The notes below the pieces were generated by a model, which saw nothing but the letters and a program-made list of their open reading frames with translations, was not told where the DNA came from and ran no database searches. From Chiloscyllium plagiosum (lineage: Eukaryota), in NCBI RefSeq assembly GCF_004010195.1, contig NC_057752.1:6445956-6509955 (forward strand): DNA of 64,000 bases, read 5' to 3'. Position numbers and translations under genes: made by a program. Positions 26,638-62,882 of this stretch are shown here, piece after piece. Positions within the stretch are counted from its first letter, which is position 1. Every line of letters starts with the position of its first letter.

Positions 26638-26749
26638 CTGAGGAAGGATACAGGAAGGTTCAGAAAACAGCTGATGACTTAGTAATTGAAGGGGTATAGA
26701 GTCAAATAACTAAAAACACTGTTAAACCATCAGAATACAAGCAATATAA

Positions 26750-35804: not shown

Positions 35805-36748
35805 CACAACAACCAGATATGTCAACCATGTTAGGCTGGCATCTGGCAATTTTCCAAGCTGTACTGGATAGCCAATCACATCACCTGGTACTACACTAAG
35901 TAATTAAGTTGGGAATGCTTCCTCTCACTGACAGAGCACAATGGCAACATAAACGCAATTCCTCCTGTTATCCAACCCAATGTGCCATTTGCTTCCTTGA
36001 CAGTGGTCAGACACCAACTTGATAGCTTGAAGAATTTACCATGGATGACTCCCAGATCCCTTTCTTGATTCAACCTTGTCAGCATTTGCCCATTACTCCT
36101 AGCTTCCATGCATCAATTTATATTCATAAGTGCACAATTTCACACTTCCTGATTGCAGCAGTAGGCCAATAACTGGCAAACAGACTGAGTTCTCATGTGA
36201 ATTGTCTCCCCTTTTCAGATATTAACCACCCTTACTATTCTGCTGTTCATCCATAAACTGAGGTGAAGCTCCCAACACACTTTCTGATATGTATGGAAAC
36301 ATTGAAACTACCAAACCCAAAACTGGTCCTCTCACGACCTCAGCTGTCACACCATACACTAAACTTGTTATTTATACAAGCCTGTTTGTCTCCCATAGGC
36401 CAGCCATGGTTTGATCTCAACTTGTTTTCCATGGAACCCTTCATTATCAACTTTACTAAAGTCTAGGTAAACCACATTTCCATTGTAGCTCCTGTCATGA
36501 GCTACAAAATGTAGAAATTCTAATGAAATAATTGGGTCTTTACTGCTGTTCCCAGAATCTAACTTCAGCATCTCCAACAACAGACAAATATCTCCCCTGA
36601 CCCAGATACCAATACAATTCTTGTATTACCACAGTCATTAAGTTGTATTTTGGATCAGAAGTACAAGCTATTGAAAATATTTGGTTTAAAACTGCAACAC
36701 TTCAGCTTTTTTAGTACAAAATAATGCTTCCATAAGTATATGACTCAC

Positions 36749-36824
36749 CATAACTCCACACATCACTTTGGTGGGTGTATCTTCTAAAGTGAATGCTCTC
36801 TAGTGCCATCCATTTAATGGGCAT
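36749..36824 (-). CDS. ERBB3: ERBB3 exon 22 homologue
   Basis: [25 protein letters not shown]; acceptor ctgtag, donor gtgagt; 76 nt, phase 0-1. Confidence 0.97.
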
Positions 36825-39185: not shown

Positions 39186-39341
39186 CTTCACTTCATCGAA
39201 GAAATACTTCTTCTCATCTAATGCCAAGAGGTTGGTGATGCCAAAGTCTGTGATTTGAACATGGCTGGGAGATTTTACCAGTACGTTTCTGGCGGCCAGG
39301 TTCCGATGTACCATCTTCTTCTCCTCCAGATATCTCATACC
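39186..39341 (-). CDS. ERBB3: ERBB3 exon 21 homologue (catalytic loop HRN, DFG, activation loop)
   Basis: [55 protein letters not shown] instead of HRD is the ERBB3 hallmark; acceptor ccacag, donor gttagt; 156 nt. Confidence 0.98.
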
Positions 39342-39533
39342 CTGTGGTAAAAGTTCAATTGGTTTAATAGAGACATAAGCAGCTGGTGTTTAATCATTAG
39401 CCCATGAGTCCATCATTATCAAAGTTCACCACCACGCAATTGATGTTCACCAAGGATATACAGATTCTATTATGCTCCTCCTTTGCTAATCATGGGATTT
39501 TTGTGTAAACCATTAATTTGAAGTCTCGCTTAC

Positions 39534-39719
39534 CTTGGCAATCTGAACACACCAGTTGAGAAGCAGCTGAGATTGGATGTTACCCTTGTTTTTGTGGAGA
39601 TATTCAAGCAGAGAGCCAAGTGGCAGGAGCTGCGTGACTATCTGGAGTGGTTCCCCAGGGCAGATTCCAAGAAGCCGTAAAACATGGTGGTGATCTAGAC
39701 TGCCCACCATCAGCATGTC
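39534..39719 (-). CDS. ERBB3: ERBB3 exon 20 homologue (alphaC, hinge)
   Basis: [62 protein letters not shown]; acceptor tttacag, donor gtaagc; 186 nt. Confidence 0.97.
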
Positions 39720-42211: not shown

Positions 42212-42326
42212 TACAGCTCCCCCTATGCTGTCCCCATCAAATACTCCCAGGACAGGGACAGCACAGGTTAGGTACAGAGTAAAGCTGTCTCTACGCTGTT
42301 CCTCATCAAACACTCCCAGGACAGGA
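42212..42326. repeat. Short remnant (under two units) of a roughly 70-bp satellite-like repeat
   Basis: gctgtccccatcaaatactcccaggacagg recurs as gctgttcctcatcaaacactcccaggacagg about 69 bp downstream. Confidence 0.65.
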
Positions 42327-42385
42327 GTACTGATCGGAGGCATGATTTGGCGGTGCTGGTGTCGGACTGGGGTGTACCACGTTAT

Positions 42386-43275
42386 AACAGAAAATGTGTT
42401 GCTGGAAAAGCGCAGCAGGTCAGGCAGCATCCAAGGAACAGGAGAATCGACGTTTCGGGCATAAGCCCTTCTTCAGGAATGAGGAAAGTGTGTCCAGCAG
42501 GCTAAGATAAAAGGTAGGGAGGAGGGACTTGGGGGAGGGGTTTTGGAAATGCGATAGGTGGAGGGAGGCCAAGGTGAGGGTGATAGGCCGCCGGTTGGCC
42601 CAGAGGTGCTCTCTGAATCGCTCTGCAAGTAGGCGGCCTGTCTCCCCAATATAGAGGAGGCCACACCGGCTGCAGCGGATGCAGTAGATGATGTGGGTGG
42701 AGGTGCAGGTGAATCTGTGGCGGATATGGAAGTTTCCCTTGGGGCCTTGGAGAGAAGTGAGGGGGGAGGTGTGGGCGCAAGTGTTGCACCTCCTGCGGTT
42801 GCAAGGGAAGGTGCCGGGAGTGGTGGTTGGGTCGGTGGGGGGTGTGGAGCTGACAGGGGAGTCGCGGAGGGAGTGGTCTCTACGGAAAGCTGGTAGGGGA
42901 GGGGAGGGAAATATATCCTTGGTGCTGGGGTCTGTTTGGGGGTGGCGGAAGTGACGGCGGATGATGCGCTGTACATGGAGATTTCTGTTTGGAGGTGGCG
43001 GAAGTGACGGCGGGTGATGCGCTGTACATGGAGATTGGTGGGGTGGTAGGTGTGGACCAGTGGGGTTCTGTCCTGGTGGGGTTTGGAGGGGCGGGGCTCA
43101 AGGGCGGAGGAGCGGGAAGTGGAAGAGATGCGGTGGAGGGCATCGTCGACTATGTCTGGTGGGAAATTGCGGTCCTTGAAGAAGGAGGCCATCTGGGTTG
43201 TACGGTTTTGGAATTGGTCCTCCTGGGAGCAGATGCGGCGGAGACGAAGGAATTGGGAATATGGGATGGCGTATG
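42386..43275 (-). mobile_element. Penelope-like retroelement 3' part: RT thumb, Cys-rich linker, GIY-YIG endonuclease (truncated) and terminal repeat with hammerhead core
   Basis: MASFFKDRNFPPDIVDDAL...RTPLVHTYHP; hand translation FPCNRRRCNTC and FTCTSTHIIYCIRCSRCGLLYIGETGRLLAERFREHL (GIY-YIG signature); internal tandem duplication around 42940-43035. Confidence 0.9.
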
Positions 43276-44244
43276 GGATGTACCAAGTTATAAATCACAC
43301 AACACTAGGTTATAGTCCGACAGGTTTATTTGAAAGCACGAGCTTTTGGAGTGCTGCTCCTTCATCAGGTGGTTATGGAGTATAAGATCGTAAAACAGAA
43401 TTTATAGCAAAAGTTTACAGTGTGCTGCAACTGAAATGATACTTTGAAAAAGACTTGGTTTTGTTTGTTAAGTCTCTCACCTTTTAGAATGACCATGTTG
43501 CTTTCAGTTCTTTCATATGTAAATTCCAGAACTTTTTTTAAAGTTACATTCTCAAGTGAACATTAACAATAGTTGCCATTTCAGTAGAGATAATGGATTT
43601 TTTTTAAGGTGAGAGGAGAAAGATATAAAAAAGACCTGAGGGGCAATTTTTTTTACACAGAGTGGTTCATGTGTGGAATGAACTTCCAGAGGAAGTTGTG
43701 GATGTGGGTACAGTTACAATGTTTAAAAGACATTTGGATAAGTACAAGAATAGGAAGGGTTTAGAGGGATATGGGCCAAATGCGGGCAGGTGGGAGTAGT
43801 TTAGTTTGGGAACATGATCGGCATGGATTGGTTGGATCAAAGGGTCTGTTTTCATGCTGTATTACTCAATGTGCAGGACAACAAAATTAAAGCCAACTTC
43901 TCTAATATTTTGTGAGGACATGCTCTTCTAGTGGCTCAGCGTGACAATAAGCCATCAATCATATTCAGTTGGCCAGTGATGAATTCATTGATATCAGCCG
44001 AGTCTGCACAAGGAATCTTAGTGGCATGGGTTAGAGAAGGGAAATCTGTCTAGGCTCTTTTCCATGCTCACTTATCCAGCAATATTTACTTGGGCCCAGA
44101 TGTGATGCCCCCATGGTTCAAAATCCTCTTATTACTAATTAGAGTTTACACATGCCAAATAATAACTTACACAATAAACCAGAAGGCTGCTAGTTAGGAT
44201 TCATGCATGAATTTTCACATAGACCTGAAGGAAAGCAGACTTAC

Positions 44245-44343
44245 TTCACTCACGCCTCTTGAAGTCTCACAGTCACGCCCTTCCTGCAGGACTTTGATGG
44301 CCACTGGAATCTTCACAGTCTCTCCCTCAGGAATCCAGAGCCC
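44245..44343 (-). CDS. ERBB3: ERBB3 exon 19 homologue (beta3 Lys, start of alphaC)
   Basis: GLWIPEGETVKIPVAIKVLQEGRDCETSRGVSE; acceptor tttttag, donor gtaagt; 99 nt. Confidence 0.97.
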
Positions 44344-44747
44344 CTAAAAACAGGAACATTATCAGATCATCAACAGTAAAGGTGAATTTCCAATAGCATT
44401 GGATCTGGCTCAATACCATATGACCAGTCTGACACTGTTAGTTAAGCCAAACATCACTTCATCCCTGAACTGTTTACACAAAGATCTTTATCAGCAATTT
44501 CACATCCTGTCACTGAAACTCTTTCCAAGGTATCACAGTGTCTCACCAAGAAATGTTAGCAAGTTTAGGTTGGTAAATGAGCAACCTGATTCCACTCTTG
44601 CATCAGTTCTATATTGACATAAGTACATTGTCTTACCTTAAATTCCTGTACTGTATTGAGAAGCTAAAAGTCACTTAGAATAGAATCTGTTCTTGTGTAA
44701 GAAGTGAAAACAGTTCATCACTTGGAGATGCCAGTGTTGGACTGGGG

Positions 44748-44926
44748 TGTACAAAGTTAAAAATCACACAACACCAGGTTATAGTCCAACAGGTTTAATT
44801 GGAAGCACTAGCTTTCGGAGCGACGCTCCTTCATCAGGTAGTTGTCAGCGGCACTCCGAAAGCTAGTGCTTCCAATTAAACCTGTTGGACTATAACCTGG
44901 TGTTGTGTGATTTTTAACTTTGTACA
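44748..44926. repeat. Perfect 73-bp inverted repeat (third Penelope-derived family) in ERBB3 intron 18
   Basis: 44748-44820 is the exact reverse complement of 44854-44926, with a 33-nt spacer; a related non-palindromic copy lies at about 43277-43380. Confidence 0.9.
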
Positions 44927-45628
44927 TCCCACTGTTAACAAGCTGCACACATTTATAACAATATCTCCCTAATTTTGGCATCATGCAAATCAAGCAGTAT
45001 CAATGTCAGATCTAGAGGGACTGGTCATTTGTTTTGGTTTGGTCAATAATAAGTTGCCTAAACAAAATAGGCAGGAATGCATAATTTGCAAAGAATGGTC
45101 TTTAAACAAAAAGTAAGCAGTCTGAGTAGAGACCAGGGGTATATTCGACTGCTTGTTAATACTCATTAAAAAAAAGAGTATGAGGATCATGTGGGGAAAG
45201 TACCATATAGTTGCATAGGATCTTTTGGGGTGGGGCAAGGCAAAGGTCATAAAATTAGTCTGCAGTCTCTACTAGAAGTACTGGATCATGTAACCATGCA
45301 CATAGGTCACAGGGATTTTATCCTGGAGGCTTGGGTGGGGCTGTCTTCCATCTTCTTTTGAACCAATAATAATTTTCTCACTGCACATTAATAGCTATTC
45401 ATTTCTTTGGTTTTGTTCTGAATGTAAAGCCATATATAATTGATAATTGAAGTGACCATCAACTTCAACTGCAAGAGAAAGGAATGCCCCTTCTCAGCCA
45501 TGTAGTTACAATTCAGCTGTCCTGAGCATCACAGGAACACCTCAACACCACTTTTTCAGAAAATTGACGTTTAAAGAAAGGGAGCATTGACTTTGTAATT
45601 TCACACATACAATCCTTCCCCAAATTAC

Positions 45629-45751
45629 CTTGTACACTGTTCCAAATACTCCAGATCCCAGAACCTTAACTTTCCGCAATTCTGTCTCCTTCAGAATTCG
45701 TGTGTTTACTTGATTGGGCGAGTCAGCATTGGGATCAAGGGGCTCAAGTAT
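45629..45751 (-). CDS. ERBB3: ERBB3 exon 18 homologue (JM-B latch, Gly-rich loop)
   Basis: [41 protein letters not shown]; acceptor tttcattag, donor gtaatt; 123 nt, phase 0-0. Confidence 0.97.
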
Positions 45752-46016
45752 CTAATGAAAAGAAACGAAAATCATCAAGTCGAAATGTCATCCTTCTATC
45801 AGTAATGGAGATGACTCCATCTAAATCCATGAAGTGAACTTTTCCCAACTGCTCATGAAGTTTAATATTTCTTTGTGTTTACTCAGCCCATGCAACTAAC
45901 AAGATTTAGTGAAGCTCCATGCAACCTTGAGAAAACAAGTTCAACTCAAATATAGTGGCTTCACTCACACTTCGAAAAACTCCCCCCCTAAAGCAATCAA
46001 TCTGTGGACCTCTTAC

Positions 46017-46152
46017 CTCAGTCTCCAAGTATCGACGCATTGCTCTCTTCTTCCGAATGATCTGCCTTCTCCAGTAAATGAGGCCCAGCAGCACCACAAG
46101 CATCACAGCCATCTGCCCTCCAACCACTGCTGCCACAATCTGAGGGATTTGT
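46017..46152 (-). CDS. ERBB3: ERBB3 exon 17 homologue (transmembrane helix and basic juxtamembrane segment)
   Basis: QIPQIVAAVVGGQMAVMLVVLLGLIYWRRQIIRKKRAMRRYLETE; acceptor aacacag, donor gtaaga; 136 nt, phase 2-0. Confidence 0.96.
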
Positions 46153-46848
46153 CTGTGTTCAAAACAATGCATGTCAAAGCAGGTGTGTCACACACAATGG
46201 AGCATGAAATTTCTGTTGTTCATGTTTCCTTGAATATTGAGTAACCACATGCAAGCAAGAGGTTAGAACAAGGGAAGCCACCCGGACCTTTAAAACATAT
46301 CAAATTCACTGTCAGAAAAGAGAAAAGTGTTTGTTAAAAGTTGCAGAAATGAATAAGGGCATTTGGAAAATGGCTAGAACTCATGGAGACATTTGTGAAA
46401 CTGTTAAGGTAGAATGTATCCTGGTAACCTGTTAGTTTACACTGCTTGTCTCACACCAGCATTTGCAGGGTCAAGCTCCCCATGGAATAAGGAACAGCTC
46501 CTCATGCTTGGAACCAATTTTCTTTGCTCGTTTTCTGATGCAACTGATTCTTGCAAGGAAAGCGTATTGCAGGTATCTGCTTCCCTGCAGTGTCTCCACA
46601 AAATGGCCATTTTTTATGTGACTGTACCCAGCAGATGTCAGCTATTTACTTATAGGGAATAAGAAGGTGTAGGTGCACTGTAGGAACGGGCAGCCAGCGA
46701 TGCAAACATCCCATGAATGAATAACAAAACATCAAATGAGACTGTCTTCCAATAACATGAATTTCCCAACAAATGCTAATTGGGAGCGGAAACTATGTTT
46801 TACCCCTCCCTAACCCAGAGGATGCAATATATTGGCCATGGTATGAAC

Positions 46849-47058
46849 CAGAGTCAAGATTAGAGTGGTGCTGGAAAAGCACAGCTGCTCTGGCAGCATC
46901 CGAGGAGCAGGAAAATTGAGGTTTCAGGCAAAAGCCCTTCATCAGGAATGGCCGAAACGTCGATTTTCCTGTTCCTTGGATGCTGCCTGACCTGCTGTGC
47001 TTTTCCAGCACCACTCTAATCTAAACTCTGGTTTCCAGCATCTGCAGTCCTCACTTTT
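46849..47058. mobile_element. Penelope-derived fold-back insertion with 14-bp TSD
   Basis: gccatggtatgaac at 46835-46848 and 47059-47072 flanks an inverted pair of the gctggaaaagcacagc terminal repeat. Confidence 0.8.
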
Positions 47059-49732
47059 GCCATGGTATGAACAAGCTCTGTGCTGCTACTCACAAAACTC
47101 AGTAATCCAAGCCATAAGTAGCAAAGAGCAAAGTGCATCACAGTAATTAAGTTGATTAAATGTGGTCTTTAAAGCTCTGGGGAAGGAGGAGAATGAGGTA
47201 TGAAACAAAAATCACAGGGGATTTTCAGGTGTATACCAAACAAGAAGTTCATTATCCAATGAGCAGGAATTCCCCTGCTGACAGGACGGAAAACTTTGAA
47301 GATATGTTGCTTTATGTGGAAAAATGGTTAGGTTTGTCACTTCTCAGCAAACAAATACCAGTGTCAGCATTGCATTCCCAGGCTAGGAGCGGTACTGCTG
47401 CAGTGAGCATAAATCTCTCTCTGCTCTGCTTCAACCCGAGACACAGGTGGATACGTGCTTTCCATTTAGCAAACTGGGAGTTCAATTTTGGATGACATGG
47501 ATTTTAATATTTCTTTAACTCACAGAAGCTTACTGCACTGAAAGATGTTGGTCACCCCTTCATGCCTGTAGCAGCTCTCCATAGGAGCTACATTTCATTC
47601 CACTCATCTGCTCTTTTCCCATAGCTTTGTGAATGTTTACCTTTTATATTTGTATCCAATTTCCTTTTGACTGTTAGTAATGTTCCTATAATATTCAATT
47701 TAAATTCTGAGTTTATCATTAAACAAAAATGGCAAAGAACTGCAGATGCTGGAAATCAGAAACAAAGGTAGAAGCTGCCGGAAAATCACAGCAGAGTGAG
47801 CTTCAGTAGGTCTGGCAGCATCTGTGGAGAGAAAGCAGAGTTAATGTTTCTGATTCAGTGACCCTTCTTCAGAACATTCTGCTGAGATTTTCCAGCAATT
47901 TCTACTTTTGTTTCTGATTTCCAGCAATTTCTATTTTTGTTTCTGAGTTTATCATATTTGGACTTTCTCCAGATTGCATTCATCATCAGGTGTTTATATC
48001 ACCTGAAACCCTTTATTTTACTTTTGAATCTTAGCCCAAAAAGTGTAATCATTCTGCTTCTTTCCTTAATAGTTAGCATATGTTACACCTATCTTACTGG
48101 GTGACTTGTATATTGAAATATTTTTACACACTTATAGGAATCCCTTTGGAAATGGCACAAAACTATAGCAAAATATTTCTGATGAGACTTGATTTGTCAG
48201 AGGTTTATTCAGAATCAGGCAGCTTTATTTTGCTTATTACACTAAGCATTTGCGCTTGTCTTTAGAATCTGGCAAAATAAGCTAAAAATAGTTACAAAAT
48301 GATAAGGATTGCCATGCATCCTACTCTTCTCAGTCTGAGAAATATCCAGGCCATTAGATAAAACCAAACACTCAGCAAACTCCCAATGAAAATGTTGAAT
48401 GATTCCAGTGAAACATGAAACCAAATTAACATTGCTTTAAAAAAATACACAATAGCTAGCATAATCAAATGAGCAAATTATCTCTTATGGAAGGTTTTAG
48501 ATTTTTATATTTGCTTTTTTTTTATTCATTTGTCACTGACAAAACCAGCATTTACTGCCCATCCCTAAATGCCCTGAAGGTGGTGGTGAGCCGCCGCCTT
48601 CAACTGCTGCAGTCCTAAAGGACACTCACAGTGCTGCGAGGAAGGGACTTCCAGGATTTTGAACCTGTGACAGTGAAGGAATGATACATTTTCAAGTTAG
48701 GATGGTGTGTGACTTAGCAGAGAACCTGCACATGCTGGTATTCCCATGTATCTGCTTTCCCTGTCCTTCTAGGTGGCAGAGGTCTGGAAAATGCTGTTGA
48801 AGAAACCTTGGTGCTTTGCATCTTGTAGAAGTCACGCACTACTACTTTAATGCACTGGTGATGGAGGAAGCGAATATTTAAAGTCATGTGAATGACCTTA
48901 TGAGTAAACATTTTATCAATGATTTGTTTATAACAATAAATATTTTTTTATAAACAAATCATTGATCAAATGTTCATTCATATGACCTTGAATTCCTTTC
49001 TTTACAGAACTAAGGATTGGAAGTAATAAATTCAGTCTTCCTATTTATCCCTCCCTGAACAATGTTGCACAAGCTTCTAAGCTGCCCTAACAAGAAGCTA
49101 AGCATTCTTTTGTGAATTAACTTTCGCAAACATATTTTAGAATGGGAGCAAGAGTCACTGAGTAGCAGTAAAAACAGGACATTTTTTCTACTTTGAACTA
49201 GACTTCTTCTCCTGTTTGTTCAGTTTTCTTTTCTGATAAACTTTACTGACTAAGCTTCCAAGAAACCATTCAGCTGTACTGCATTTTCAGTGGCAGAGCA
49301 CAGTGGTAGAGGAGGGAATTACAGCAAGGACCACAGAGGGGTTGGAGAATGAAATATTATTTCCAATACTGCACATGCTTCTCTAGACAAACAAAACTTG
49401 GTCGGTGAGTAGGAGATTTCTCCACAGGTAATGAAAATGTTTGAACAATGACGTTGTAACACAGACAAACGTGAATGGTGTTTGCTGCAAAGTGAGCTTA
49501 CCTTACTCAGTGAATGCAAGATTAAGAGGAGACATACATTTTGTCACTCTGCTTTCTCCACTTTGGACACTCCATTATCTTTGTCTTTAAATTCGCACAA
49601 TAGAGAAAGGAAATAATTCATGTTTCTCAGCCAGACCTTTATACTATTTTTCCGAATGAGTAGGCAGGCAGTACTGTTCTGTGTTAAGGTGGTGTGAGAG
49701 AGGGGATTGGGTTGACTTGTTCTCATTTCCTA

Positions 49733-50655
49733 GGCAAAAGTGAGGACTGCAGATGCTGGAGATTAGAGTCGAGAGTGTGGAGCTGGAGAAGCACAGCAGG
49801 TCAGGCAGCATCCGAAGAGCAGGAAAAATCGACGTTTTGGGCAAAAGTACTTCACCAGGAGTGAGGCTGGGAGCCTCGGGGTGGAGAGATAAATGAGAGG
49901 GGGGTGGGGCTGNNNNNNNNNNNNNNNNNNNNNNNNNNNNNNNNNNNNNNNNNNNNNNNNNNNNNNNNNNNNNNNNNNNNNNNNNNNNNNNNNNNNNNNN
50001 NNNNNNNNNNNNNNNNNNNNNNNNNNNNNNNNNNNNNNNNNNNNCATTTCCGCCACCTACAAACGGACCCCACCACCAGAGATACATTTCCCTCCCCACC
50101 CCTATCCGCTTTCTGTAAAGACCATTTCCTCCACGACTACCTCGTCAGGTACCCTCCAACCCCAGGGCATCAATGTGGATTTCACCAGTTTCCACATTTC
50201 CCCTTCCCCCCACCTGACCCCAATTCCAACCTTCCAGCTCAGCACCGCCCTCATGACCTGTCCCACCTGTCAATCTCCCTTCCCACCTATCCGCTCCATC
50301 CTCCCCTCTGACCTATCACCTTTACCGGAGGAGAAAGTGAGGTCTGCAGATGCTGGAGATCAGAGCTGAAAATGTGTTGCTGGAAAAGCGCAGCGGGTCA
50401 GACAGCATCCAGGGAACAGGAGAATCGGCGTTTCGGGCATAAGCCCTTCTTCAGGAAGGGCTTTACCCCCACCTCCATCCATCTACTGCACTCTCAGCTA
50501 CCTTCCCCCCAGCCCCAAACCCTCCTATTTATCTCTCCGCCCCTGAGGTTCCCAGCCTCATTCCTAATGAAGGGCATTTGCCCGAAATGTCGACTTTCCC
50601 GCTCCTCAAATGCTGCCTGACCTGCTGTGCTTTTCCAGCACCACACTCTTGAATC
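49733..50655. mobile_element. Composite Penelope-like insertion spanning an assembly gap (N 49913-50044)
   Basis: HFRHLQTDPTTRDTFPSPPLSAF coding remnant plus three copies of the terminal repeat in both orientations. Confidence 0.8.
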
Positions 50656-52344
50656 TTGCTCTCATTTCTTCCTCCTCTTCCTGGGAAAGTGGCTCACCTC
50701 AACTAATCACTGTTCCTTGATAGCTTGATAGCTCATTATATGGTAAATTATGGGCACATACCCACATCTCTCACCCTGCGATTCAGGAAGGTGTTAGATT
50801 ATTTAGTGGTGTCATCAGCTGCTTATTTCACATTTGCAAATTTCCAAACTAAAAGATGGAACTTTCCACACAAAACACACGGTGCGATCTGGCAACTGAA
50901 TTAATTCCAAACACTGTACTCCTTGAATGACAAGAGTCAAATTGACAATGTTTGCTTGAGTATAAAGCCAGAAATACCTCATCTGTAAGAACTCTCCATA
51001 ACTAAGCTCAGTTGAAAAATTTGATTTAGCAAAGAATACAGTAGAATCTATCCACGTCTTTTCGTCCAAATTTCTCCCTTCAGCTTGAGATCAGTTAACA
51101 CAACTCAGAGGTGGGTCAGCTGTGAGCCCTGTGTGGCCCAACAGGTTTGGCAGTGCACTCTGCAATGGAACCACCAGGGCAGCTCAATATAATGTTAACC
51201 AAAACTAGGGAGCCAGCAGCTGAATGATTTCCAGCCAATTCTTGTTAAGAAGACTTTACAGATGAGGTTTGACTGAAAGAGGAAAGACCAGCAACCAAAG
51301 CAAGACAAAGAAATGCAATGTGAAGGCATGTTGCTGTGCAGTGATCAAAGCCCTGGTTAATGAAAGCACTGCCAAAGACACAAAAGGAAGCATCCCATTT
51401 CTGGGGCATGAGGTTGATGGCAACAAATTATGCAATTGAATGGCTGTTACATGCTACACAGATTATTGTTGCAAATAAATGGTTATTTTCTGTTGTACTC
51501 TGATCAACAGAGATAACTTATAGTGAGTGCTGTGACAGGAAGTGAAACATCCAGATTTGATTGACAAATTATTTATCTCTTCATATCCCAAAATAGAACA
51601 TAGCATAAGATCCTTTCTTGATGTGGGAAATCTAAAAGTATAATAACAACTGGAAGAGGCGGCTTTTCATTTTCTATCCAGTAGCAGCATCAGATATTGG
51701 ACAGGCAACCTCCAACACGGAACTCTCTGACTTAATGTAAAAATCCCAACCTCTAAAACAGGGCCTCTCTTAATGCAGAACCCTCTTTCTCTGATACTGG
51801 GTGCTGTTACGCTGATTCAGGGTGCTGTTACGCTGCAGATTTAATGTTGGTCCACTGTATCACAAACATTACCTTTGTTTTCTTGTGTGAAACATAGCAA
51901 AACCTTTGTATCCAATCCACCCTGTTTCTACTAAATCTTTCCCATTTGTCTTTCAATTTCAATATGATACTTGTTACCAGCAAGTTTCCAAGTTCCACCT
52001 TTCCATTCTGTCAGTATTTCTCCGCACTGCTCTGTCTCCTTGCTGGAGTTTAGTTTTATAGACATGAGCTATGCCACATCACTTGAGGGGCAGTTATTGC
52101 TATGTAATGTTGCAGATAGCGAGTGCCACTAGGCCGGGTGACCATAGATCATGTTTATGGCTGAGTGAGCAGACAAGACACTGGAGGAGGAGTGGGAATC
52201 CCGGTTGATTTACCCCGACTCACTTCTAGCCTAGACATGCTGAATCCAAACATCAAATATATCATCCCAGTTTCCAAGTCCATTATGAGCAACTTGTTGA
52301 ACACACAGATCAGGCACTCAAACACCTTACTTGTGAAGTAATAA

Positions 52345-52857
52345 TAGAGTCATAGAGATGTACAGCATGGAGACAGACCCTTCGGTTCAACTTGTCCATG
52401 TTGACCAGATATCCCAACCCAATCTAGTCCCACCTGCCAGCACCTGGCCGATATCCCTCTAAACCCTTCCTATTCATATGCCCATCCAGATACCTTTTAA
52501 ATGTTGTAATTGTACCAGCATCCACCACTTCCTCTGGCAGCTCATTCCATACACGTACCACCCTCTGCGTGAAAACGTTGCACCTTAGATCTCTTTTATA
52601 TCTTTCCCCTCTCACCCTAAACCTATGCCGTCTAGTTCTGGACTCCCCCACCCCAGGGAAGAGACTTTGTCTATTTATCCTATCCATATCCCTCATGATT
52701 TTATAAACCTCTATGAGGTTACCCCTCAGCCTCCAACGCTCCAGGGAAAACAGCCCCAGCCTATTCAGCCTCTCCCTAAAACTCAAACCCACTAACCCTG
52801 GCAACATCCTCATAGATCTTTTCTGAACCCTTTCAAGTTTCACATCATCCTTCCGAT
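52345..52857 (-). mobile_element. CR1 LINE 3' fragment about 170 nt downstream of the JM-a-like exon
   Basis: KLERVQKRSMRMLPGL...TQRVVRVWNELPEEVV. Confidence 0.9.
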
Positions 52858-53024
52858 AATATGTAAAGGCTTTTTAAATGTGAGCCACCAGGAGATACCC
52901 CGAAGCATTGTTCAGTAGAATAGAAAATGGTGACATTTTCTTCTCAAATCTTTTCTTTTTGCCATTCAAGTGTAATGTTCCACTCTCATGTCACAGCTTG
53001 GATCCAAAGTGGGGAGGATGTTAC

Positions 53025-53096
53025 CTATTGTGTAATGCTTTGATGGGAGCCATCCAAGGATAGCGAGAACAGTCCAGCACAGTAGAACCCTTACAC
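53025..53096 (-). CDS. ERBB3: ERBB3 extracellular juxtamembrane exon, long form (ERBB4 JM-a-like), candidate alternative exon
   Basis: ccag|g tgt aag ggt tct act gtg ctg gac tgt tct cgc tat cct tgg atg gct ccc atc aaa gca tta cac aat ag|gtaaca = CKGSTVLDCSRYPWMAPIKALHN(R); 72 nt, phase 2-2; same Cys spacing plus YPW as ERBB4 JM-a. Confidence 0.88.
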
Positions 53097-53161
53097 CTGG
53101 ATTTAATCAGAATAAAAGATGAAAATCACAAGGCAGCATGCACACACACAGTCAACTGTAC

Positions 53162-53206
53162 CTATGGACAACCTCGCCACAGTCCGCAGCCGTTGAACCT
53201 CGGCAC
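53162..53206 (-). CDS. ERBB3: ERBB3 extracellular juxtamembrane exon, short form (ERBB4 JM-b-like), candidate alternative exon
   Basis: ccag|g tgc cga ggt tca acg gct gcg gac tgt ggc gag gtt gtc cat ag|gtacag = CRGSTAADCGEVVH(R); 45 nt, phase 2-2; supplies the last C-x-G-x4-DC of domain IV. Confidence 0.88.
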   Translation of the reverse strand: MPRFNGCGLWRGCP

Positions 53207-54213
53207 CTGGTGTCATGGCAACAAAAGAAAACAAGTAAAAACCACAAAGCATTTCTCAAACCAACATTCAAAAAAGAAGCAACAACTTGATTTAAATGTA
53301 AAGTGATGCGGAGAAAATCTCAGGGATTCAAAACATAGTAATAAATCAACAGGCAGGTTTTATTTTGCCCTGTCGTTCATGTAAAACAAAATCTGAAATG
53401 TCAGACTGACAGATTGTCAGGTGAGCACATCAGCCATCAACAGCTAGGAAGAGGGAAAACTCATCCAGGGTTCTTGAGTGTTATCATGATATAACAACTC
53501 CCAGCTGGGACATCACAAAATCAAGACAAGATTAATCATGATCTTGATGCCTCTTGTAATGAACAGCACTCCTCTCAAAGGCTGGTCAAAATTGGGAATT
53601 TGCAGATAAATGCTTATGCTTGTTCCAACTCTGCTGTGGCACTGCAGTGATAGTACACAAATGCAAATGAATATCCTGGAAGGAGCCGGTTTTTGGAATT
53701 TGAGTGTGTGACTTCAGGATTTTAAAAAAATATTCTAATTTTCTCTCCTGAGTCCTCATTGGAATACAAGCTGAAGTAGCTACTATTAATGCATGAGTTA
53801 ACTGTGAGTATTGCCTGCTGTTCACGACATGAGGCATCAAGATTATGACTGGTCTTGTCTTGATCCTGATGTCCCATCTGGTGGGGGGGGTTGTCATAGT
53901 AATAAGACTCGAGAGTCCTGAATGAGTTTTCCTTCCCTAAGCCAACAGTCCAGAGAGTAATTACTGCTCCAGTTGAGGGGATAGTCAGCCTATTCAGTGT
54001 AGAGATATTCCTCACATCCAATCAGTTTGTGGGCTCCCCTCCTGCTCATTGTTTGGGCTGTGGGAGACCATAACAAACCTTTTCACAACTTTTGGACTTG
54101 CAAATCCTTCCACTGCTTCACATTTCTCTCCAAGGGAGGAAAGAAAAGATAGAAAAACATAATGTTTGAAGAGGTGAAATGTGGGAATTCAGAGGTAGTT
54201 ACTGTATACCCAC

Positions 54214-54368
54214 CCCTGGGTACAGTTCTCATGGCAAGGTTTGCATTCTTTGTTCTCATCTGGGTATTTGAAGATGAGACCCCTCTCTCCCTGGATTCCC
54301 TCTGGACACTTTGCCACACAGTTGGGTCCATCTTTGTAATGAGCACATTGAAAGCAGTGAGCAGGTCC
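54214..54368 (-). CDS. ERBB3: ERBB3 exon 15 homologue (domain IV)
   Basis: [52 protein letters not shown]; acceptor ctcttcag, donor gtgggt; 155 nt, phase 0-2. Confidence 0.96.
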
Positions 54369-55054
54369 CTGAAGAGAACAAAAAAAATCGATGAGGTTAG
54401 ATCAGACAAAATTGGTTTCTTTTTGGATAAATGGCACCCTTCCTCTTCTCTGCATTCTCAGTCAGTTGAAATTAAGACTCAACACTCCAGCTTCTATTGT
54501 GACCCCTTTCCTGAAAACTACAGATCTCCTCATTCCCTCGGTTTCTTCACCTCAACCGCTCCCAGTCCACAACAAACAATCTGATCTTCATCTCAATGAA
54601 TTGCTACTCACTGATTCATCCCATATTTCCTCCAAATCTTTTTCAATCCAGGCATGTCCTGTATTGTGGACCTTGGGCCATGGACTTGGTTCTCTCCATT
54701 TTTATGGTCAAATTGGAATACATGCTTTTGCAATTGCACTGAACACACCTTGTTTCGAGAAACAGGCAAGTGCATAACTTTGAGTTGTGACCAAAATAGC
54801 CCAGTCACTTGGTAACAGCTGGTTACTTGTGAGTTACAACACATTGTGCCATGGGTTGGCAGGACAGGATTTCATGCTTGCCATTGCCCAGACAGTGTCA
54901 CTGTGGGAAGCTAACACAGAAGGTAGATCCTTCTTGTGCAACTCATGATGAACAGCAATCAAATAAGAACAGCAAAGGCCTGGGAGGAAATCACCCATCA
55001 CTTGTTTGGCTAAGTCACAAAACAAGGAAGAAAATAAATTATGGCTGTGAAGAA

Positions 55055-55940
55055 AAGGTGAGGTATGGCATTGAAGGTGAGTTGGAGGTTTGGATTCGGA
55101 GTTGGCTGGCTGGAAGAAGACAGAGGGTAGTAGTTGATGGCAAAGGTTCATCTTGGAGTGCCGTCACTAGCGGTGTTCCGCAAGGATTTGTTTTGGGACC
55201 ATTGCTGTTTGTCATTTTTATAAATGACCTGGAGGAGGGGTTAGAAAGTTGGGTGAGCAAGTTTGCGGATGATACGAAAGTCGGAGGAGTTGTAGACAGT
55301 GAGGAAGAATGTGGCAGGTTACAGCGGGATATAGATAAGCTGCAGAACTGGGCAGAAAGGTGGCATAGAGTAAAAGGGAGGATGTTAAACTTGTATGAGG
55401 CTTGGTAGATCTTGGCTGGAGTGCTATGAACAATTGTGGGCATCACCTTACAGGAAAGATGCAAATGCATTGGAGAGAGTTCAGAAGTGATTGAAAAAAA
55501 TGGTTCCAGGAATATGCATTCTGGGTAATCCAAGATGGAGGGTGGGAAAGATTTCTGGCTGTAACAGGCTGCTCCTTTTTTGAGGTATTTCAGGTGTTGG
55601 AGGTGGTTTCCTCAAATTCCAGGAATAACAATTACTGTTTTACATGCTGTTGCATTGTTCTGGAACTTTGGAGAAAAATAATAGTCAAAACAACAGCACT
55701 TTTAATGAGCTGCCAGAGGAAGTGGTGGAGGTTAGTATGATTGCAACATTTAAAAGAGTTCATGGAATGCCCTGTCAGTAGCAGTGGTGGACTCTCCCTC
55801 TTTGTGGGCATTTAAGCGGGCATTGGATAGGCATATGGAGGATAGTGGGCTAGTGTAGGTTAGGTGGGCTTGGATCGGCGCAACATCGAGGGCCGAAGGG
55901 CCTGTACTGCACTGTATTCTTCTATGTTCTATGTTCTAAA
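55055..55940 (+). mobile_element. Patchwork of CR1 fragments (RT core 55055-55362, 5' UTR-like 55520-55700, 3' ends to 55940)
   Basis: [21 protein letters not shown]...[11 protein letters not shown]; 55520-55700 resembles the reverse complement of 6710-6860. Confidence 0.85.
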
Positions 55941-56344
55941 AGAGAAAAACAAATTTGCTTTCTTACGTAACATCAGTTCAAAGTATCACCACTTTTAATT
56001 CTGTCCCTGCACCTTCCTGAAAGTATCCTTTGAAATTTTATAAAAAGGCAACAGATTCATACCATCCCAGGCTCAGATACCTGCAGAAGTAGGTGCTGCG
56101 TGATAAGAACTCATTTCAAACATTGCAGCCTGATGATGTTAAACTGAGAACAGCTGATATCTTCTCATTAGTCATGTGGAAACCTAAAATATATTGATCC
56201 ACACTATAGCACCCTCCCCTCCCACTGACTCCACCTAAAATACAGAAACATTCTTTAAAATTAACTTTTAATTATGAAAACCAAAGTGAGTTAAACCGCA
56301 CGTAACCAGTTCTGACCCACAGTAAGTGTCACTTATCCTCATAC

Positions 56345-56435
56345 CGTCCCATTGCAGGTTGGGCCTCCCTCGATCTTCTTACACTCTGGGTGACACTGCA
56401 TACACATGGAGCCATCAGCATACTCTCTCTCGTCG
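56345..56435 (-). CDS. ERBB3: ERBB3 exon 14 homologue (domain IV)
   Basis: Hand translation DEREYADGSMCMQCHPECKKIEGGPTCNGT; acceptor tttctacag, donor gtatga; 91 nt, phase 2-0. Confidence 0.95.
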
Positions 56436-57099
56436 CTGTAGAAACAACAGTAGAATGGGTACTGATTCTGCATCCTTCCCTGCACATATGTAAGATCCCC
56501 CCATGATATGACTGATATTTAGCTCACATCAATCTGGAGTTGCTTCTGTTCATGACTTACTTGTTCACCTTATTAGATTGGAACGTGAAACCTATTTGAT
56601 TTGCTCCAAGATCTTTAGAAGCAGCACTGACATATTTCTTAAGATGGTTCTGGCCTTAGCCACTCTTCCTGACAACTCTCTCAAGCTGCTTAGATCCATG
56701 TTGAATAAATGGAGCATGTGGAAGATCGGTTAGCTCAGTCAATAACACTCTCACATCTGAGTCAGAAGGTTGTAGGTTTGACACCCTCCCTCCACCCATT
56801 CTAGGACTTGAGAAAATAACCTAGGTTGACATTCCAGTAGGGTATTGGTGGAATGCTGCAGTTGATGCTATTAAACTGAGGTGGTGTTATTAAACTGAGA
56901 CCTTATGACCTGTTTTAGTGGTTCTAGTGGACATGATGATCCTTTGGCACTATTTGGAAAAAACAAGGAGATGGCAGTGTCATTGCCGATATTCTTCCAT
57001 TATCTAACAACCAGTATCAAATAACAGATTTACCATTCAGTTACTATTTGTGATTCCTGCCCAGTGCAAAACAATGCCACATTTCCCAACATAGAAACA

Positions 57100-58790
57100 A
57101 ACATAGAATAGCAGGAGGACTAGGCCATTCAGTCCTTTGAGCCTGCTGCATCTTTCAATGTAATCATGGGTGATCATCCAACTCAGAATCCTGTTCCCGC
57201 TTTCTCCTCATATCCTTTGATCACTTTAGATCTAAGAACTATATCTAACTCCTTCTTGAAAACATTCAATGTTTTGGTCTCAACCGCTTTCTGTGGCAGA
57301 GAATTCCACAGGCTCACCACTCTGTGGGTGAAGATATTTCTCTTCATCCTTGTCCTTAGACTGTGATCCCTGGTTCTGGACTCCCCAGGCAGCGAGAACA
57401 TCTTTCTTGCATCTACCCGACTAATCCTGTTAGAATTTTATATGTTTCTATGGGGTTCCTCCCCCCTCACCTCATTCTCTCAACTCTCGTGAATATATTC
57501 CTAACCAATTCAATCGCTCCCCCTACGTCTGTTCCGCCATCCTAGGAATCAGTCTGGTAAAACATCTTTGCATTCCCTCAATGGCCAGACATCCTTCCTC
57601 ATATAAAGAGACCAAACTGCACATAATGCTCCAGATACAACTGCAGCAAGACATCTTTGTTCCTGTACTCAGACCCTCTCACTATAAAGGCCAACATACC
57701 ATTTGCCTTCTTCATCTTTCAGCAAGAAAATAAAGTGAGGAAGTGTGGATGTTAGAGATCTGAAACAAACAAAAACAGAAATTGCTGGAGAAATTCAGCA
57801 GCTCTGGCAGCATCTGTGGAGAAAAAGAAGGGTCACTGGACATTATACCTGTTTTCTCCAGAATTTTCTCTGATGCTGCCAGAGCTGCTGAATTTCTCCA
57901 GCAATTTCTGTTTTTGTTTGTTTCAGATCTCTAACATGGTGGTGGATTGGGAAAGGGGGAGGTGCAATGACACTTGGGTGTCTGCGTACATCAGTTACTG
58001 AAACTTGGCAAACAATAACAATTTTCTCCAGAATTTTCTCTGATGCTGTAGACCTGATGAGTTTCTCCAGCATTTGCTGCTATTGTTTGCCAAATTTCAG
58101 TGACTGGTGTACGCAGACACCCAAGTGTCATCACACCTCCCCCTTTCCTTGGATTTAATACTATCCCTAATCTCCATTGACAGCCACGTTTTCAGTTTTA
58201 TTTTTATGCCAGACTTGATTAGATTAGATTCCCTACAGAGTATAAATAGGCCCTTCGGCCCAACAAGTCCACACCGATCCTCCGAAGAGCAACCCACCCA
58301 GTCCCATTCCCCTACGTTTACCCCTGACTAATGCACCTAGTACTACGGGCAATTTAGCATGGCTAATTCACCTAACCTGCACATCTTTGTGACTGCGGGA
58401 GGAAACCGGAGCACCCAGAGGAAACCCACGCAGACATGGGGAGAATGTGCAAACTCCACACGGACAGTTGCTCGAAGCGGGAATTGAACCCAGGTCCCAG
58501 GCACTGTGAGGCAGCAGTGCTAACCACTGAGCCACCGTGCTGCCCCCTTGAATGAACTTTTGCAGCTCATCCACACACTTTTTAAATGTTTGCCATTCCC
58601 TATCTACCATCATTCCCTTAAATAACAATCCCCAATTTATCATAGCTAGTTCGCACCTAATACCACCGTAATTTCCTTTATTTAAATTCAGGACCCTAGT
58701 CTCAGAAACAATTTTGTCACTCTCATCTTAATGAAGAATTTTATCCTATTATGGTCACTTTTCCCTCAGGGCCCATGCAAAACTAGATTG
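57100..58790 (-). mobile_element. Decayed CR1 LINE hosting nested Penelope palindromes (57749-58148) and an HE1 SINE
   Basis: NIFTHRVVSLWNSLPQKAVE at the 3' end; INWGLLFKGMMVDREWQTFK further upstream. Confidence 0.75.
58217..58547 (-). mobile_element. HE1-type tRNA-derived SINE, full length
   Basis: Minus strand reads gggggcagcacggtggctcagtggttagcactgctgcctcacag...gggttcaattcc (A and B boxes)...gggccgaagggcct hairpin and (aatct)n tail. Confidence 0.88.
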
Positions 58791-59617
58791 GGCATTATGT
58801 AATAAAGAAAAAATAATTGACAATCAAGGAAACCTTTGAATTGAATTGAAGTACTCTAGGATGTTTGAGAAAAATGATCTGGTGCTTTTTGAATACAAAA
58901 CTTTCTACCTTTCACAAAGCACAGATCGAATCAAGGGGAGATCTGATGATATCATAAGATTTAGAAATTTATTGTCTTACAAGACATTTTTTAACATTTA
59001 TGTATTATTTTAGAGACAATGATAATTGTTCTCCGAGCGGGCAATCAGAATCTGACTCTCTTTCAGGGTGGTGTAAGTGCAGAATATCTAACAACTAAGA
59101 GTATGTTACAAAGCAAGGTTTAGAGAACAAAGCTTTAATAGTTGATCAACAGGATGAACAGCCTTTGAAATGCCTTCCTACTTGTCATATCCCCTACACT
59201 GTGTGGTTTTAAATCAGCTCTTGGTGTGACAAAGTCAAAGTGAACATGTGATTGAAAGACACAATTTGAACTGTCGTGCTGTTGCATCAGAGGGTTTGAA
59301 AAGCTGTGATAAAAGAATCACTCCTGAGATAAATAAACAATAATAGGGTAATTTCACAGTACAAGCAACTTGTAGTAGAAAGCTCTCTCATAAGGACCAA
59401 AAGGTAGTTTTCTCTACTCAATGATTGTGGGCTGCAGGTACTCCATATGACTGAGGTCATGAATGCAGGGGGAAAAAGGCTACTGGAAATCTTTTTAATC
59501 CTAAGTCCATACAGGAAGATGAAATTGGATGTAGCAGCGTTGAGAGAAGACATCGATGCAAATAGGACATTTCAGGAAGTGACTAGGGATAATGCAGTAA
59601 GTGTCACAGCAACTCAC

Positions 59618-59750
59618 CCTTCCTGGAAATTACAGCTCTTCACACAGGTGCCACCACGACTGTGGAAGGCACAGGACAGACACTGACTTGGGCCTGGCCC
59701 CCAACATCCATCACTGGAACACAAAGGATCACACACCTTTTTCTCAGCCT
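59618..59750 (-). CDS. ERBB3: ERBB3 exon 13 homologue (Cys-rich domain IV)
   Basis: [45 protein letters not shown]; acceptor ttttccag, donor gtgagt; 133 nt, phase 1-2. Confidence 0.96.
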
Positions 59751-62377
59751 CTGGAAAAAGAAAGAAGAAAGAGATACATGCACAAATCAGTATGGACATA
59801 CAGCAAGTTTGACCTAATATTTAGATATAACCCAGCTCCACCCACCAACTTCAGTCAGGAGGTGGCTACTCTTTCCTGACCTCAAATATCCATCGACAAT
59901 TTGCTGTTTGCAAAAGATTCAGAGCAGAATGCCTCCTACCCCTTAATGTTAACACCTAGCTTCCTGATGGCATAGTGAATGTTCTGTGTACTATCGTATC
60001 CTATTAAAGTCCAGGTGTGATTAAGATTTTAGTATCAGATGAAGCAATAATAGCATTACAATTGATCTGTATTTAGGGACATGAGGAGGGATATTAACAT
60101 CAGCCAGGATTCCTATCACTGATTGCTAAACATTGACTTCCCCACTTCCTAGGTATGCATGCATACGGACTTAAGATAGGGACAAATGGCCCACAAGGTC
60201 AAAGAGTCATCAGTGACTCAAATGAGATATCAGAGAGCTATACAAAAGCAACCTCATTCCAGTGAGGTGTTATGTCTCTACAACAGAGACGATGCTTCAG
60301 ACGTTCTCTACTGGCCTCCAGAGATCAAATGCAGAATATGTGATGAAAGCAGGAACAGTAAGTGATAGAACGAGCAGCACTGGCAAAACATGCTGCAGCC
60401 CACTTTTATTTTGTAATCAGAAGGATATTCTTCACCAGCAACTGGTGAACAAGTTGAATTTTTCATTCTTCACCATGGAAGCAATGACAACAATCTTCTA
60501 TAGTCCAGGCACTTCCTCATGTATAAATGTAGTGTGCTTCAGGGCTTAGGGACAGAAGTTTGCTAAATTTTCTTGTCACTGATGTAGCTAGGTCATCATT
60601 ACCAGAGAAGAATTGTGTGCTTAAGATATTAGCACTGTTTTAGTACCAACTAAACTCAACAGAAAAAAATGCACTCTGCAGTTCAGGATTGCTATTAAAC
60701 TCCAGCCTGTGATTGTTGCCCACAGAACTGGAATTAAGCTTCATGTTTTAAGGCCAGTCATCAATCACAGTACCTGTTAAATGTGCTTTTTCTATTTGAG
60801 CCATTTTCTCATGACACATTTAGGACTCATTACAGGTTTGATATGCAAGCCGCAGCTAATTTACTTTCTTCTTTCAAACATACTGACTCTTACTTGGGTA
60901 CAGTGCCACAGCACTGACAATTCCCCAGTGCATTGCGCAAGGGGACCATGTCATTCAATTCGACAAACATGGTTAGCCTGTCCATCAGCTTGAGGCATCA
61001 CAGCCAAGTTGATCACAAACTCACACCCAACAGGGGCTGCTGGATCATGATCAGGTGTAGGGGTTGACATTTACCCTTCTATAAACCAGGGTCACTGCCG
61101 AACAGTCTGGCTGCACTTGGCTAACTCAGTTCAAGACCAGAGTCAAAACTGGGTGCTCTTACATCGTACAGGCAGTGAACAGAGCTGCTCAATCAGTCCT
61201 CAGTCTGGAGTGTCTCTTTCAATATCACACTATGACAAGCCAAAACAGTATTACAAAAGCAGTATCAGTTCTTACACCTGCTAACTTTCAAGCTCAAGGT
61301 CTCTTTCCCTCCTTCCTTTTCCATTAAGATTAAAAGCTTTGACAAAATCTTTCTTTTTTCAACAATAATCATTTTCAAGATAAATATTCATTCAGATAAT
61401 TGCATTACAAATTATTATTTTAGGTAACACATATTTATTCATTCATTCTGTGTGCAGGAGTTTGACCTGATTATTACCTTTAATTTAATACACTTACTCA
61501 AGGGGTATATTTAAGAGATGGATACTCAGTTAGCATAGTACTACAATAAATGTACCTTTGCCTCAAAGATACCCTTGAATAACATAATAAAATTGAAGTA
61601 GTAAATATTCAACTCCACAATCTCGCTGTTCCCAAACTGCTTAACTGACATTCAATCCTGAGACACCAATAATTTCCTCTTTTTAACATTGGGAAGATTG
61701 AAGCCATTGTCTTCAGACTCAGGCACAAATTTCATTCCCTCACTGATTCTATACCTTGACCTGTCTCACGTTGAACCAGACTGACCATAAGCTCTCTGTC
61801 TGATTTGACCCGGAGCTAAGCCTCTCACTCATGAACATCTCCATCACAAAGACCATATACTCCTAACTCCATAACATCTTCCGTTAGTGCTCCTGCATCA
61901 ATTCATCTGCTGCTGAAACTCTCATTTCCACTTTGCTTTCCTCCAAGCCAAACCATTCCAATAGTACCTTGGTACCCGTCCAACCAATGCCTTGATTTTT
62001 AATTTATCATTCCTTGTGTTCAAATCCCTCTATTGTCTCAACTCTCCCTATAATTTTTAACCTTCTCCAGGTCTACAGCCCTCCAAGAACTCTGCATTCC
62101 TCGAATTCTGGCCTCTTCTGCACCTCTCACTTCTGTTACCCACCACTGTCTTGAATTGCCTAGACCCTAACTTCTGGAATTCCTCTTTAAACCTCTATTC
62201 CTTTAAGTTGTTCCTTAAAGCTCTCTCTTTGGTTAGCTGCTCCAATGTCCTGTTATATTGCTCAGTGTCAATTTTAAAAAATCTTGCTATAGTGAAGCAC
62301 CTTGTGTTAAAGATGCTTTATAATTACAGATTGCTATTGAGTTTCAGAGAGAAAAGAAATGTATTCCTCTCACTTAC

Positions 62378-62586
62378 TGCAGGTTGCTTCTGGTTTGTTT
62401 CTCTTGATGATGGGTTCAGGGATCATTGTCCTCCGACTGTATAGTGCTGTCCAGTTCAATGTGTGATAGTAGCAGAGTAATTTATTGAACGCCACGTACA
62501 CCTGTCCAGCACCAATCTCTTTTAACGACTGAAACCCAAGAGATGTCACTTGCTTCAACTTCATGATCATCAGAGACAAACCACGG
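62378..62586 (-). CDS. ERBB3: ERBB3 exon 12 homologue (L2 domain III end / start of domain IV); the gene continues beyond the right edge of the window
   Basis: Encodes RGLSLMIMKLKQVTSLGFQSLKEIGAGQVYVAFNKLLCYYHTLNW...KRNKPEATC, similar to human ERBB3 [27 protein letters not shown]; acceptor ttttgtag, donor gtaagt; 209 nt, phase 2-1. Confidence 0.95.
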
Positions 62587-62882
62587 CTACAAAAAAGGCA
62601 GTGAGGATCATAGTGAGGGGTCTTGGGACTAATTATAGTGGTACAGTACTTGATTTTGCTCATCCACTTCTATTCCCCACCGTCACCCTCCCATGCAACA
62701 TAGGATGACACCTCCAATCAAGAGCTCACTGTGCAGGGACTCTGGAAGCAAAAACTCTTATGTTCCGGTAGATTAATGCAGACTAGTTGATTTGTATATT
62801 TGTAGGTATATTCCTATGTGTTACTGTATGACAGCAAGGAACTGACCACAGATCGCTCAATTATGGGTAGGGTAACAGTGAA

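Follow-up and report, generated by a model that had tools for sequence, protein, structure and literature searches.

In the bamboo shark Chiloscyllium plagiosum, the gene for the neuregulin receptor ERBB3 very probably carries two mutually exclusive exons for the extracellular juxtamembrane (JM) stalk, homologous in architecture to exons 15b (JM-b) and 16 (JM-a) of ERBB4, and this pair is most likely ancestral. The DNA analysed is a 64,000-nucleotide stretch of contig NC_057752.1, called the window hereafter; the exons described all lie on its minus strand. The JM-a/JM-b switch is a textbook case of splicing deciding the proteolytic signalling of a receptor tyrosine kinase, and one regarded as confined to ERBB4.

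Two alternative exons next to the membrane

The constitutive exon 15 (54214..54368, 155 nucleotides) was delimited from the sequence and by tblastn with protein models P0040, P0037 and others. It encodes GPAHCFQ...CHENCTQ and ends in CAG GG before the donor gtgggt, the GG starting a glycine codon that either alternative exon completes. The short alternative exon (53162..53206, 45 nucleotides, peptide CRGSTAADCGEVVH) has the position and size of JM-b, and its borders read cag/G TGC ... CAT AG/gtacag. An intron of 65 nucleotides, as counted from the sequence (53097..53161), separates it from the long alternative exon (53025..53096, 72 nucleotides, peptide CKGSTVLDCSRYPWMAPIKALHN), which is JM-a-like with a YPW motif and has the borders cag/G TGT ... 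AAT AG/gtaaca. In a tblastn search, the long-exon peptide was 100% identical over 24 amino acids to Chiloscyllium models P0037, P0040 and P0032. The exon for the transmembrane and intracellular juxtamembrane segments follows (46017..46152, R-QIPQIVAAVVGGQMAVMLVVLLGLIYWRRQIIRKKRAMRRYLETE, from sequence and tblastn); it opens with acag/A CAA ATC and reads R-QIPQIVAAVVGG...RRQIIRKKRAMRRYLETE up to the donor gtaaga, RRQIIRKKRAMRRYLETE coming after the membrane span.

Both alternative exons are bounded by AG and GT, have equal phase, and stand between exon 15 and the transmembrane exon; the reading frame is kept with the short exon alone, the long exon alone, or neither. Each codes for the final C-x-G-x4-D-C of domain IV. 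Translation of the full 64 kb in six frames contains this motif exactly two times, at these exons, against a mean of 0.165 and a maximum of 2 in 200 mononucleotide shuffles. The comparison argues that the exon pair is real and not due to chance. The sequence-only reading, made before the present analysis, had proposed two AG/GT-bounded exons of 45 and 72 nucleotides in the same phase, each with this motif, and the sequence agrees. From the last cysteine to the membrane span there are 10 residues in the short form and 19, YPW included, in the long one.

In human ERBB4, the constitutive exon 15 has 155 bp and ends in GG; exon 15b (45 nucleotides, G TGC..., CIGSSIEDCIGLMD) lies 121 nucleotides upstream of exon 16 (75 nucleotides, G TGT...), and exon 15b is mutually exclusive with exon 16 (PMC2944867, in the available part of its text). 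That ERBB4 has a 45-nucleotide JM-b exon and then a 75-nucleotide JM-a exon had been stated in the sequence-only reading, in agreement with this source. Among the ERBB4 proteins retrieved, forms with JM-a, with JM-b, with both (b before a) and with neither all occur. Over positions 1-14, identity of the shark long exon was 0.52 to JM-a and 0.32 to JM-b; over positions 10-14 it was 0.42 and 0.00, respectively, owing to YPW. On these values the long exon is homologous in sequence to JM-a.

Conservation and probable exclusive use of the two exons

Chondrichthyan protein models were read as the listed members of their clusters, namely 15 of 26 and 15 of 21 in two of these, and all members of four smaller ones. 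The resulting 46 models, from 21 species, had the long exon (27), the short exon (14), neither (4) or a truncated long exon (1), and none had both; exactly one exon was found in 41 of the 46. Models of the long and of the short form were both present in 10 of the 21 species, among those listed. These were Scyliorhinus canicula, Mustelus asterias, Cetorhinus maximus, Hypanus sabinus, Amblyraja radiata, Leucoraja erinacea, Mobula birostris, Pristis pectinata, Narcine bancroftii and Callorhinchus milii. The chimaera forms are P0005 and P0006, the short one (P0006) being a separate UniProt record, V9K829, and the short-form skate protein P0046 is also tagged with a 'Logan' assembly source. In coelacanth ERBB3, model P0007 is of the long type, with YPPW, and models P0067 and P0068 are of a shorter type. 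This shorter form, of 17-18 residues, resembles the single form of lungfish and tetrapods.

The long peptide of the window recurs letter for letter in Chiloscyllium models, and the short peptide in isoform X2 of Hemiscyllium ocellatum (P0033). From sharks to rays the long peptide is near-invariant, with 6 variants that differ at 1-3 sites, and it is still recognisable in the chimaera (CKGPALLHCSLYLWKDPSKVLSD). In sharks and rays the short peptide follows the pattern C-R-G/S-...-D-C-G-E-V/I-V/A-H; that of the chimaera follows C-Q-G-...-C-G-E-P-I-N. Sharks, rays and chimaera together have 7 different long peptides and 10 different short ones, all with frame, length and cysteines kept. Sharks and rays have been apart for some hundreds of millions of years. 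Because frame, length and cysteines are kept over such distances, we concluded from these peptides that both exons are under selection. Decay of one exon in related species had been named beforehand as part of a refuting outcome, and in the models of sharks, rays and chimaera both exons are kept in frame.

Splicing would join exon 15 to one alternative exon, and that exon to the transmembrane exon, so that the two resulting receptors would be alike except for the extracellular stalk. The intron of 65 nucleotides is probably too short for splicing, the 5' splice site and the branch point being likely to hinder each other sterically and thereby to impose the use of one exon or the other. A candidate branch point, gtgAt, lies about 36 nucleotides from the donor and 29 nucleotides from the acceptor of this intron. 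With so little room, the two exons would not be joinable to each other, which fits the absence of both-exon models among the 46.

Several points weigh against the reading of an exclusive pair equivalent to that of ERBB4. The human ERBB4 exons are exclusive with an intron of 121 nucleotides, and ERBB4 models with both exons exist, so that intron length is not the sole control in the family. Moreover, exon use is known from gene models, i.e. from predictions, the transcript hints being limited to the Logan tag and V9K829. When four runs (X1-X4, their kinds being guessed) were aligned to window positions 45500-56600 at 90% likeness, the alignment was swamped by repeats (46.6-47.4, 49.6-50.7, 52.2-52.9 and 54.8-56.3 kb) and the four junctions of interest were unreadable. 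Finally, identity of the short exon was 0.34 to JM-b and 0.36 to JM-a, without preference for JM-b; the short exon is the JM-b equivalent by size, place and phase alone. The earlier claim of a match in length, order, cysteine spacing and YPW held.

Runs X3 and X4 gave some weak evidence on use. Depth was zero in the unique intron bins 50694-52177, against 29.3/8.1 (X3/X4) in the exon 15 bins, 9.24/2.73 at the two alternative exons and 3.61/1.09 at the transmembrane exon. A 2-kb contig in each of these two runs ends at 54211, three bases (GTG) beyond exon 15; it is exactly with the next base that the short exon (GTGC) parts from the long exon (GTGT) and from the unspliced intron (GTGG). Contigs ending there point to a branch, and do not tell which branches it has. 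It is very improbable that one of the exons is a pseudo-exon or an annotation artefact devoid of use in vivo. Junction-level reads were not seen here and a single prediction pipeline lies behind many of the models, which would leave room for such an artefact; against it stand the frame, length and cysteines of both exons, kept across the 7 long and 10 short peptides of sharks, rays and chimaera, the separate UniProt entry of the chimaera short form (V9K829, P0006), and the Logan tag of one short-form protein.

The same four runs allowed two side observations. At window position 54264, in exon 15, all four had A (one contig each) where the window has G, a silent TAC to TAT change on the coding strand. 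Very high-copy repeats were located in introns at 46613-47354, 49581-50693, 52178-52919 and 54775-56258, where the contig depths of each of the four runs add up to 10^3-10^5. The window contains 339 N letters, a run of which was seen near 49.8-50.05 kb, within the intron that follows the long exon.

Identity of the gene and origin of the pair

The window contains the 3' two thirds of the bamboo-shark ERBB3 gene. On its minus strand, 17 ordered tblastn pieces at 21364..62588 cover residues 378-1205 of P0040 and reach the stop codon at 21364; this C. plagiosum protein was the best-fitting model, with 100% identity in the last exon (tblastn). Downstream of the gene, a Pfam search with 42 of the 122 open reading frames of at least 55 amino acids in window 1-21400 returned, as to neighbour genes, only repeat matches of the RVT_1 and ALKBH8_N type. 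The RVT_1 remnants lie at 8436-14335, and the ALKBH8_N-type match at 14087-14335.

Assignment to ERBB3 was the point that the sequence-only reading had itself named as able to refute it, and here it was upheld. In a protein tree, the chondrichthyan group joined bony-vertebrate ERBB3 with a support of 100 in the Shimodaira-Hasegawa-like approximate likelihood ratio test (SH-aLRT), and the sister of this assembly was an ERBB4 clade (100) that included true shark and skate ERBB4. The tree comprised 36 proteins and 1241 columns, its outgroups being lamprey and hagfish sequences, gar ERBB2, an EGFR-type protein and representatives further removed. It came from a quick search under LG+G4; some of the outgroups have long branches, and the ERBB3/ERBB4 split is short-branched and well sampled. 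Joining the chondrichthyan group to ERBB4 was rejected by the approximately unbiased (AU) test (difference in log-likelihood 197.7, p 1e-5), for a group picked after the tree was seen. In the alignment, the catalytic loop is HRNLAARN in the shark, skate and coelacanth proteins and HRNLSARN in the chimaera, against HRDLAARN in all ERBB4 sequences, and the shark protein has the further ERBB3-type motifs ICPG and KRAMRRYLE. The best match among solved structures was human ERBB3 (7mn5_A, 1427 bits). On the basis of the tree, the AU test and HRNLAARN, we concluded from the protein sequences that the gene is an ERBB3 orthologue.

Database names point elsewhere. A protein search with exon 15 matched 26 of 26 candidates, the nearest being shark, ray and chimaera models and then coelacanth and reptile ERBB3, and the NCBI/RefSeq names among these nearest matches were 'erbB-4-like', 'erbB-4', 'erbB-3' and 'erbB-3a'. 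For this gene (proteins P0001, P0002, P0004, P0040) the RefSeq name is 'erbB-4-like' or 'erbB-4' in most sharks, rays and the chimaera, with 'erbB-3' or 'erbB-3a' in a few; the separate, true ERBB4 of the same species also carries the name 'erbB-4-like'. Were the gene an ERBB4 paralogue, as this name in most sharks and rays would have it, the switch would simply be the one already known. Similarity over the kinase domain does little to oppose this, being 70-73% to tetrapod ERBB3 and 70-72% to ERBB4, and the ectodomain scored 908 bits with ERBB3 and 891 with ERBB4; the near-equal kinase values are probably the reason for the 'erbB-4-like' names. The tree and the AU test nevertheless oppose it, as do HRNLAARN and ICPG in this gene and the presence, in the same species, of a distinct true ERBB4 with HRDLAARN (P0159, P0176, P0181). 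This alternative was accordingly rejected as extremely improbable, and the name 'erbB-4-like' is misleading for chondrichthyan ERBB3 genes.

The kinase exons lie at about 39183-45751 of the window, on the minus strand. At the C-helix position occupied by Glu in ERBB4, the residue is Asp in shark, skate and chimaera, which differs from Glu and is still acidic, Pro in coelacanth, and His in tetrapods. The tail holds 2 YxxM sites for PI3K p85 in the shark (YMPM, YEYM), with 6 in gibbon ERBB3 and 1 in ERBB4. From its residues, the chondrichthyan ERBB3 kinase domain may be closer to ERBB4 than that of tetrapod ERBB3 is, i.e. a less degenerate pseudokinase.

The distribution of the pair was then read from the models of other vertebrates. 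Every tetrapod ERBB3 printed (amphibians, reptiles, birds, mammals, human) has one form, of about 21-23 residues and without YPW, a few odd read-through models excepted; the earlier statement that mammalian ERBB3 has a single exon here is borne out by all these sequences. Lungfish ERBB3 has a single form of the tetrapod type. The frog ERBB3 exon (P0409, P0385, P0383) starts C-I/K-G-P-G-I-x-N-C-I-G-M, near the C-I-G-P-R-I-Q-D-C-I-G-M-M-D of ERBB4 JM-b. There are hints in such peptides that the exon kept by tetrapod ERBB3 may be of the b type, lengthened. Three fish ERBB3 representatives (P0192, P0194, P0214) have one form, as have the isoforms P0339-P0341 of one of them. A search with an 82-amino-acid query (105 matches of 150 candidates) returned no actinopterygian ERBB3, and did not reach gar, bichir, sturgeon or bowfin.

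On the ERBB4 side, sturgeon and paddlefish have JM-a, JM-b and both, and the teleost models seen have JM-b or none. The latter agrees with a 2006 evolutionary study, the available text of which gives teleosts only the short form and reads the long form as a tetrapod feature (PMC1618406). Chondrichthyan ERBB4 models, 15 listed of 68 (P0159, P0169-P0182), were JM-b-like in 11 cases, had neither exon in 3 and were unreadable in 1, with no JM-a. In this partial list, the lack of JM-a is the reverse of what ERBB3 has in the same animals. Lamprey and hagfish ErbB3/4-like models have one cassette exon and no pair. In the lamprey 'erbB-4-like' proteins (ErbB3/4-like; P0342-P0349), the single juxtamembrane cassette is CNGAGSVNCHLIGQHLRG, and it is skipped in one isoform.

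The simplest history is that the exon pair was probably already present in the ERBB3/ERBB4 ancestor of jawed vertebrates and that lineage-specific losses followed: the pair would have been retained in ERBB3 of cartilaginous fishes and coelacanth, and cut to one exon in tetrapod ERBB3. That the switch is older than the ERBB3/ERBB4 duplication had been advanced in the sequence-only reading, and the shared architecture, the YPW motif and the two forms in chondrichthyans and coelacanth lend it support. If the pairs had instead arisen by separate exon duplications in ERBB3 and ERBB4, one would understand why the short exon has no specific likeness to JM-b, why lamprey and hagfish models have one cassette exon, skipped in one isoform, in place of a pair, and why the listed chondrichthyan ERBB4 models have no JM-a form. 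Such convergence would, however, have had to produce in both genes a short exon upstream of a long one, a size of 45 nucleotides for the short exon, an identical phase and an identical YPW offset, and the two forms are found in ERBB3 of two deep lineages as well as in sturgeon and tetrapod ERBB4. We consider it improbable, and less likely than inheritance.

Functional readings and known systems

Stalk length is regarded as a determinant of shedding, and ERBB4 JM-a/JM-b has been cited as a possible case (PMC5385562, in the available part of its text). Since cleavage by sheddases requires a long enough stalk, the ERBB3 form with the longer one may be shed. By analogy with ERBB4, this form would be cleaved by an ADAM-type sheddase and the short form would resist; shedding would then yield a soluble neuregulin-binding ectodomain and a membrane stub. 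We hold this reading as tentative, somewhat short of an even chance, and subsequent release of the intracellular domain would be less likely still. Three points count against it. The stretch aligned to the cut region of ERBB4 JM-a is not conserved (MAPIKALHN in the alignment). Residues H631-D632 of JM-a, which have been tied to glycan binding and STAT5a (PMC9663514, as far as its text was available), have as counterparts L-D in the long and A-D in the short shark exon. Furthermore, no gamma-secretase-dependent fragment is obtained from human ERBB3, according to the portion of PMC5662267 at hand.

It is also possible, though we would not call it probable, that the exons are real alternatives and that the switch tunes a trait other than shedding, such as the geometry of the dimer with ERBB2, the cell-surface compartment or contacts with glycans, or downstream selectivity. 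The ERBB4 juxtamembrane isoforms differ in activation of STAT5a and STAT5b and in their location at the surface, differences that stem from the extracellular juxtamembrane stretch and do not depend on cleavage (PMC9663514, same part), and the ERBB4 cleavage-region residues are not conserved in the shark long exon, both of which would suit such a role. It is less well served by the donor-acceptor pair H631-D632, said in the same source to be essential for the JM-a motif and absent from both shark exons, and by the fact that the exons differ most clearly, among conserved traits, in the length of the stalk, 19 versus 10 residues, the feature linked to shedding (PMC5385562). Returning to shedding, an ancestral switch could have been split in opposite ways after the duplication, cartilaginous fishes keeping the cleavable long form on ERBB3 and tetrapods on ERBB4. 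This is unlikely; if true, it would be ERBB3 that serves in sharks as the neuregulin receptor signalling through a shed ectodomain and a freed intracellular domain, and what is set free would be a pseudokinase.

The full-text literature searched, whose coverage excludes subscription journals, contained no description of juxtamembrane isoforms of ERBB3. Neither are they mentioned in the available parts of two papers on ErbB evolution (PMC1618406, PMC9120683), the second of which, according to the part available, took the longest isoform per gene only. Both isoforms are nevertheless already present, unremarked, as X1/X2 models in RefSeq and UniProt, mostly named 'erbB-4-like'. The earlier claim that the switch is undescribed for ERBB3 is thus correct for the literature searched, and has to be qualified for the databases. 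As sharks, rays, chimaera and coelacanth have this two-exon module in ERBB3 too, its origin probably lies before the ERBB3/ERBB4 split, and the single exon of tetrapod ERBB3 would be the outcome of a loss. The finding is sound as evolutionary evidence and of practical use for experiments, and is not a new mechanism: with the same module on a pseudokinase background, a natural swap experiment is available to ask whether stalk length or sequence confers shedding.

Tetrapod ERBB3 is the orthologous gene and has YxxM tail sites as the shark gene does, but it has one YPW-less form, and His in place of the shark Asp in the C-helix. In CADM1 (exon 9), CD166 and SIRP-alpha, as in the shark gene, a small alternative exon alters the length of the membrane-proximal stalk only; theirs are cassette exons, included or skipped, whose function has been shown, whereas the shark exons would form a mutually exclusive pair (PMC5385562, in the part available). 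With ERBB4 the differences are that the shark pair sits in the pseudokinase paralogue, that the intron between the exons has 65 nucleotides rather than 121, that the long exon has 72 nucleotides rather than 75, and that the tail of the long exon and the entire short exon are unlike in sequence, the H-D pair of JM-a being absent. Against these stand an exon series of 155/45/72 nucleotides in shark ERBB3 and 155/45/75 in ERBB4, with equal order, phase and first codons (TGC/TGT); the last C-x-G-x4-D-C supplied by each exon, with YPW in the long exon at an equal offset after the second cysteine; and stalks of 19 and 10 residues in shark ERBB3, compared with 19 (JM-a) and 9 (JM-b) in mouse-type ERBB4.
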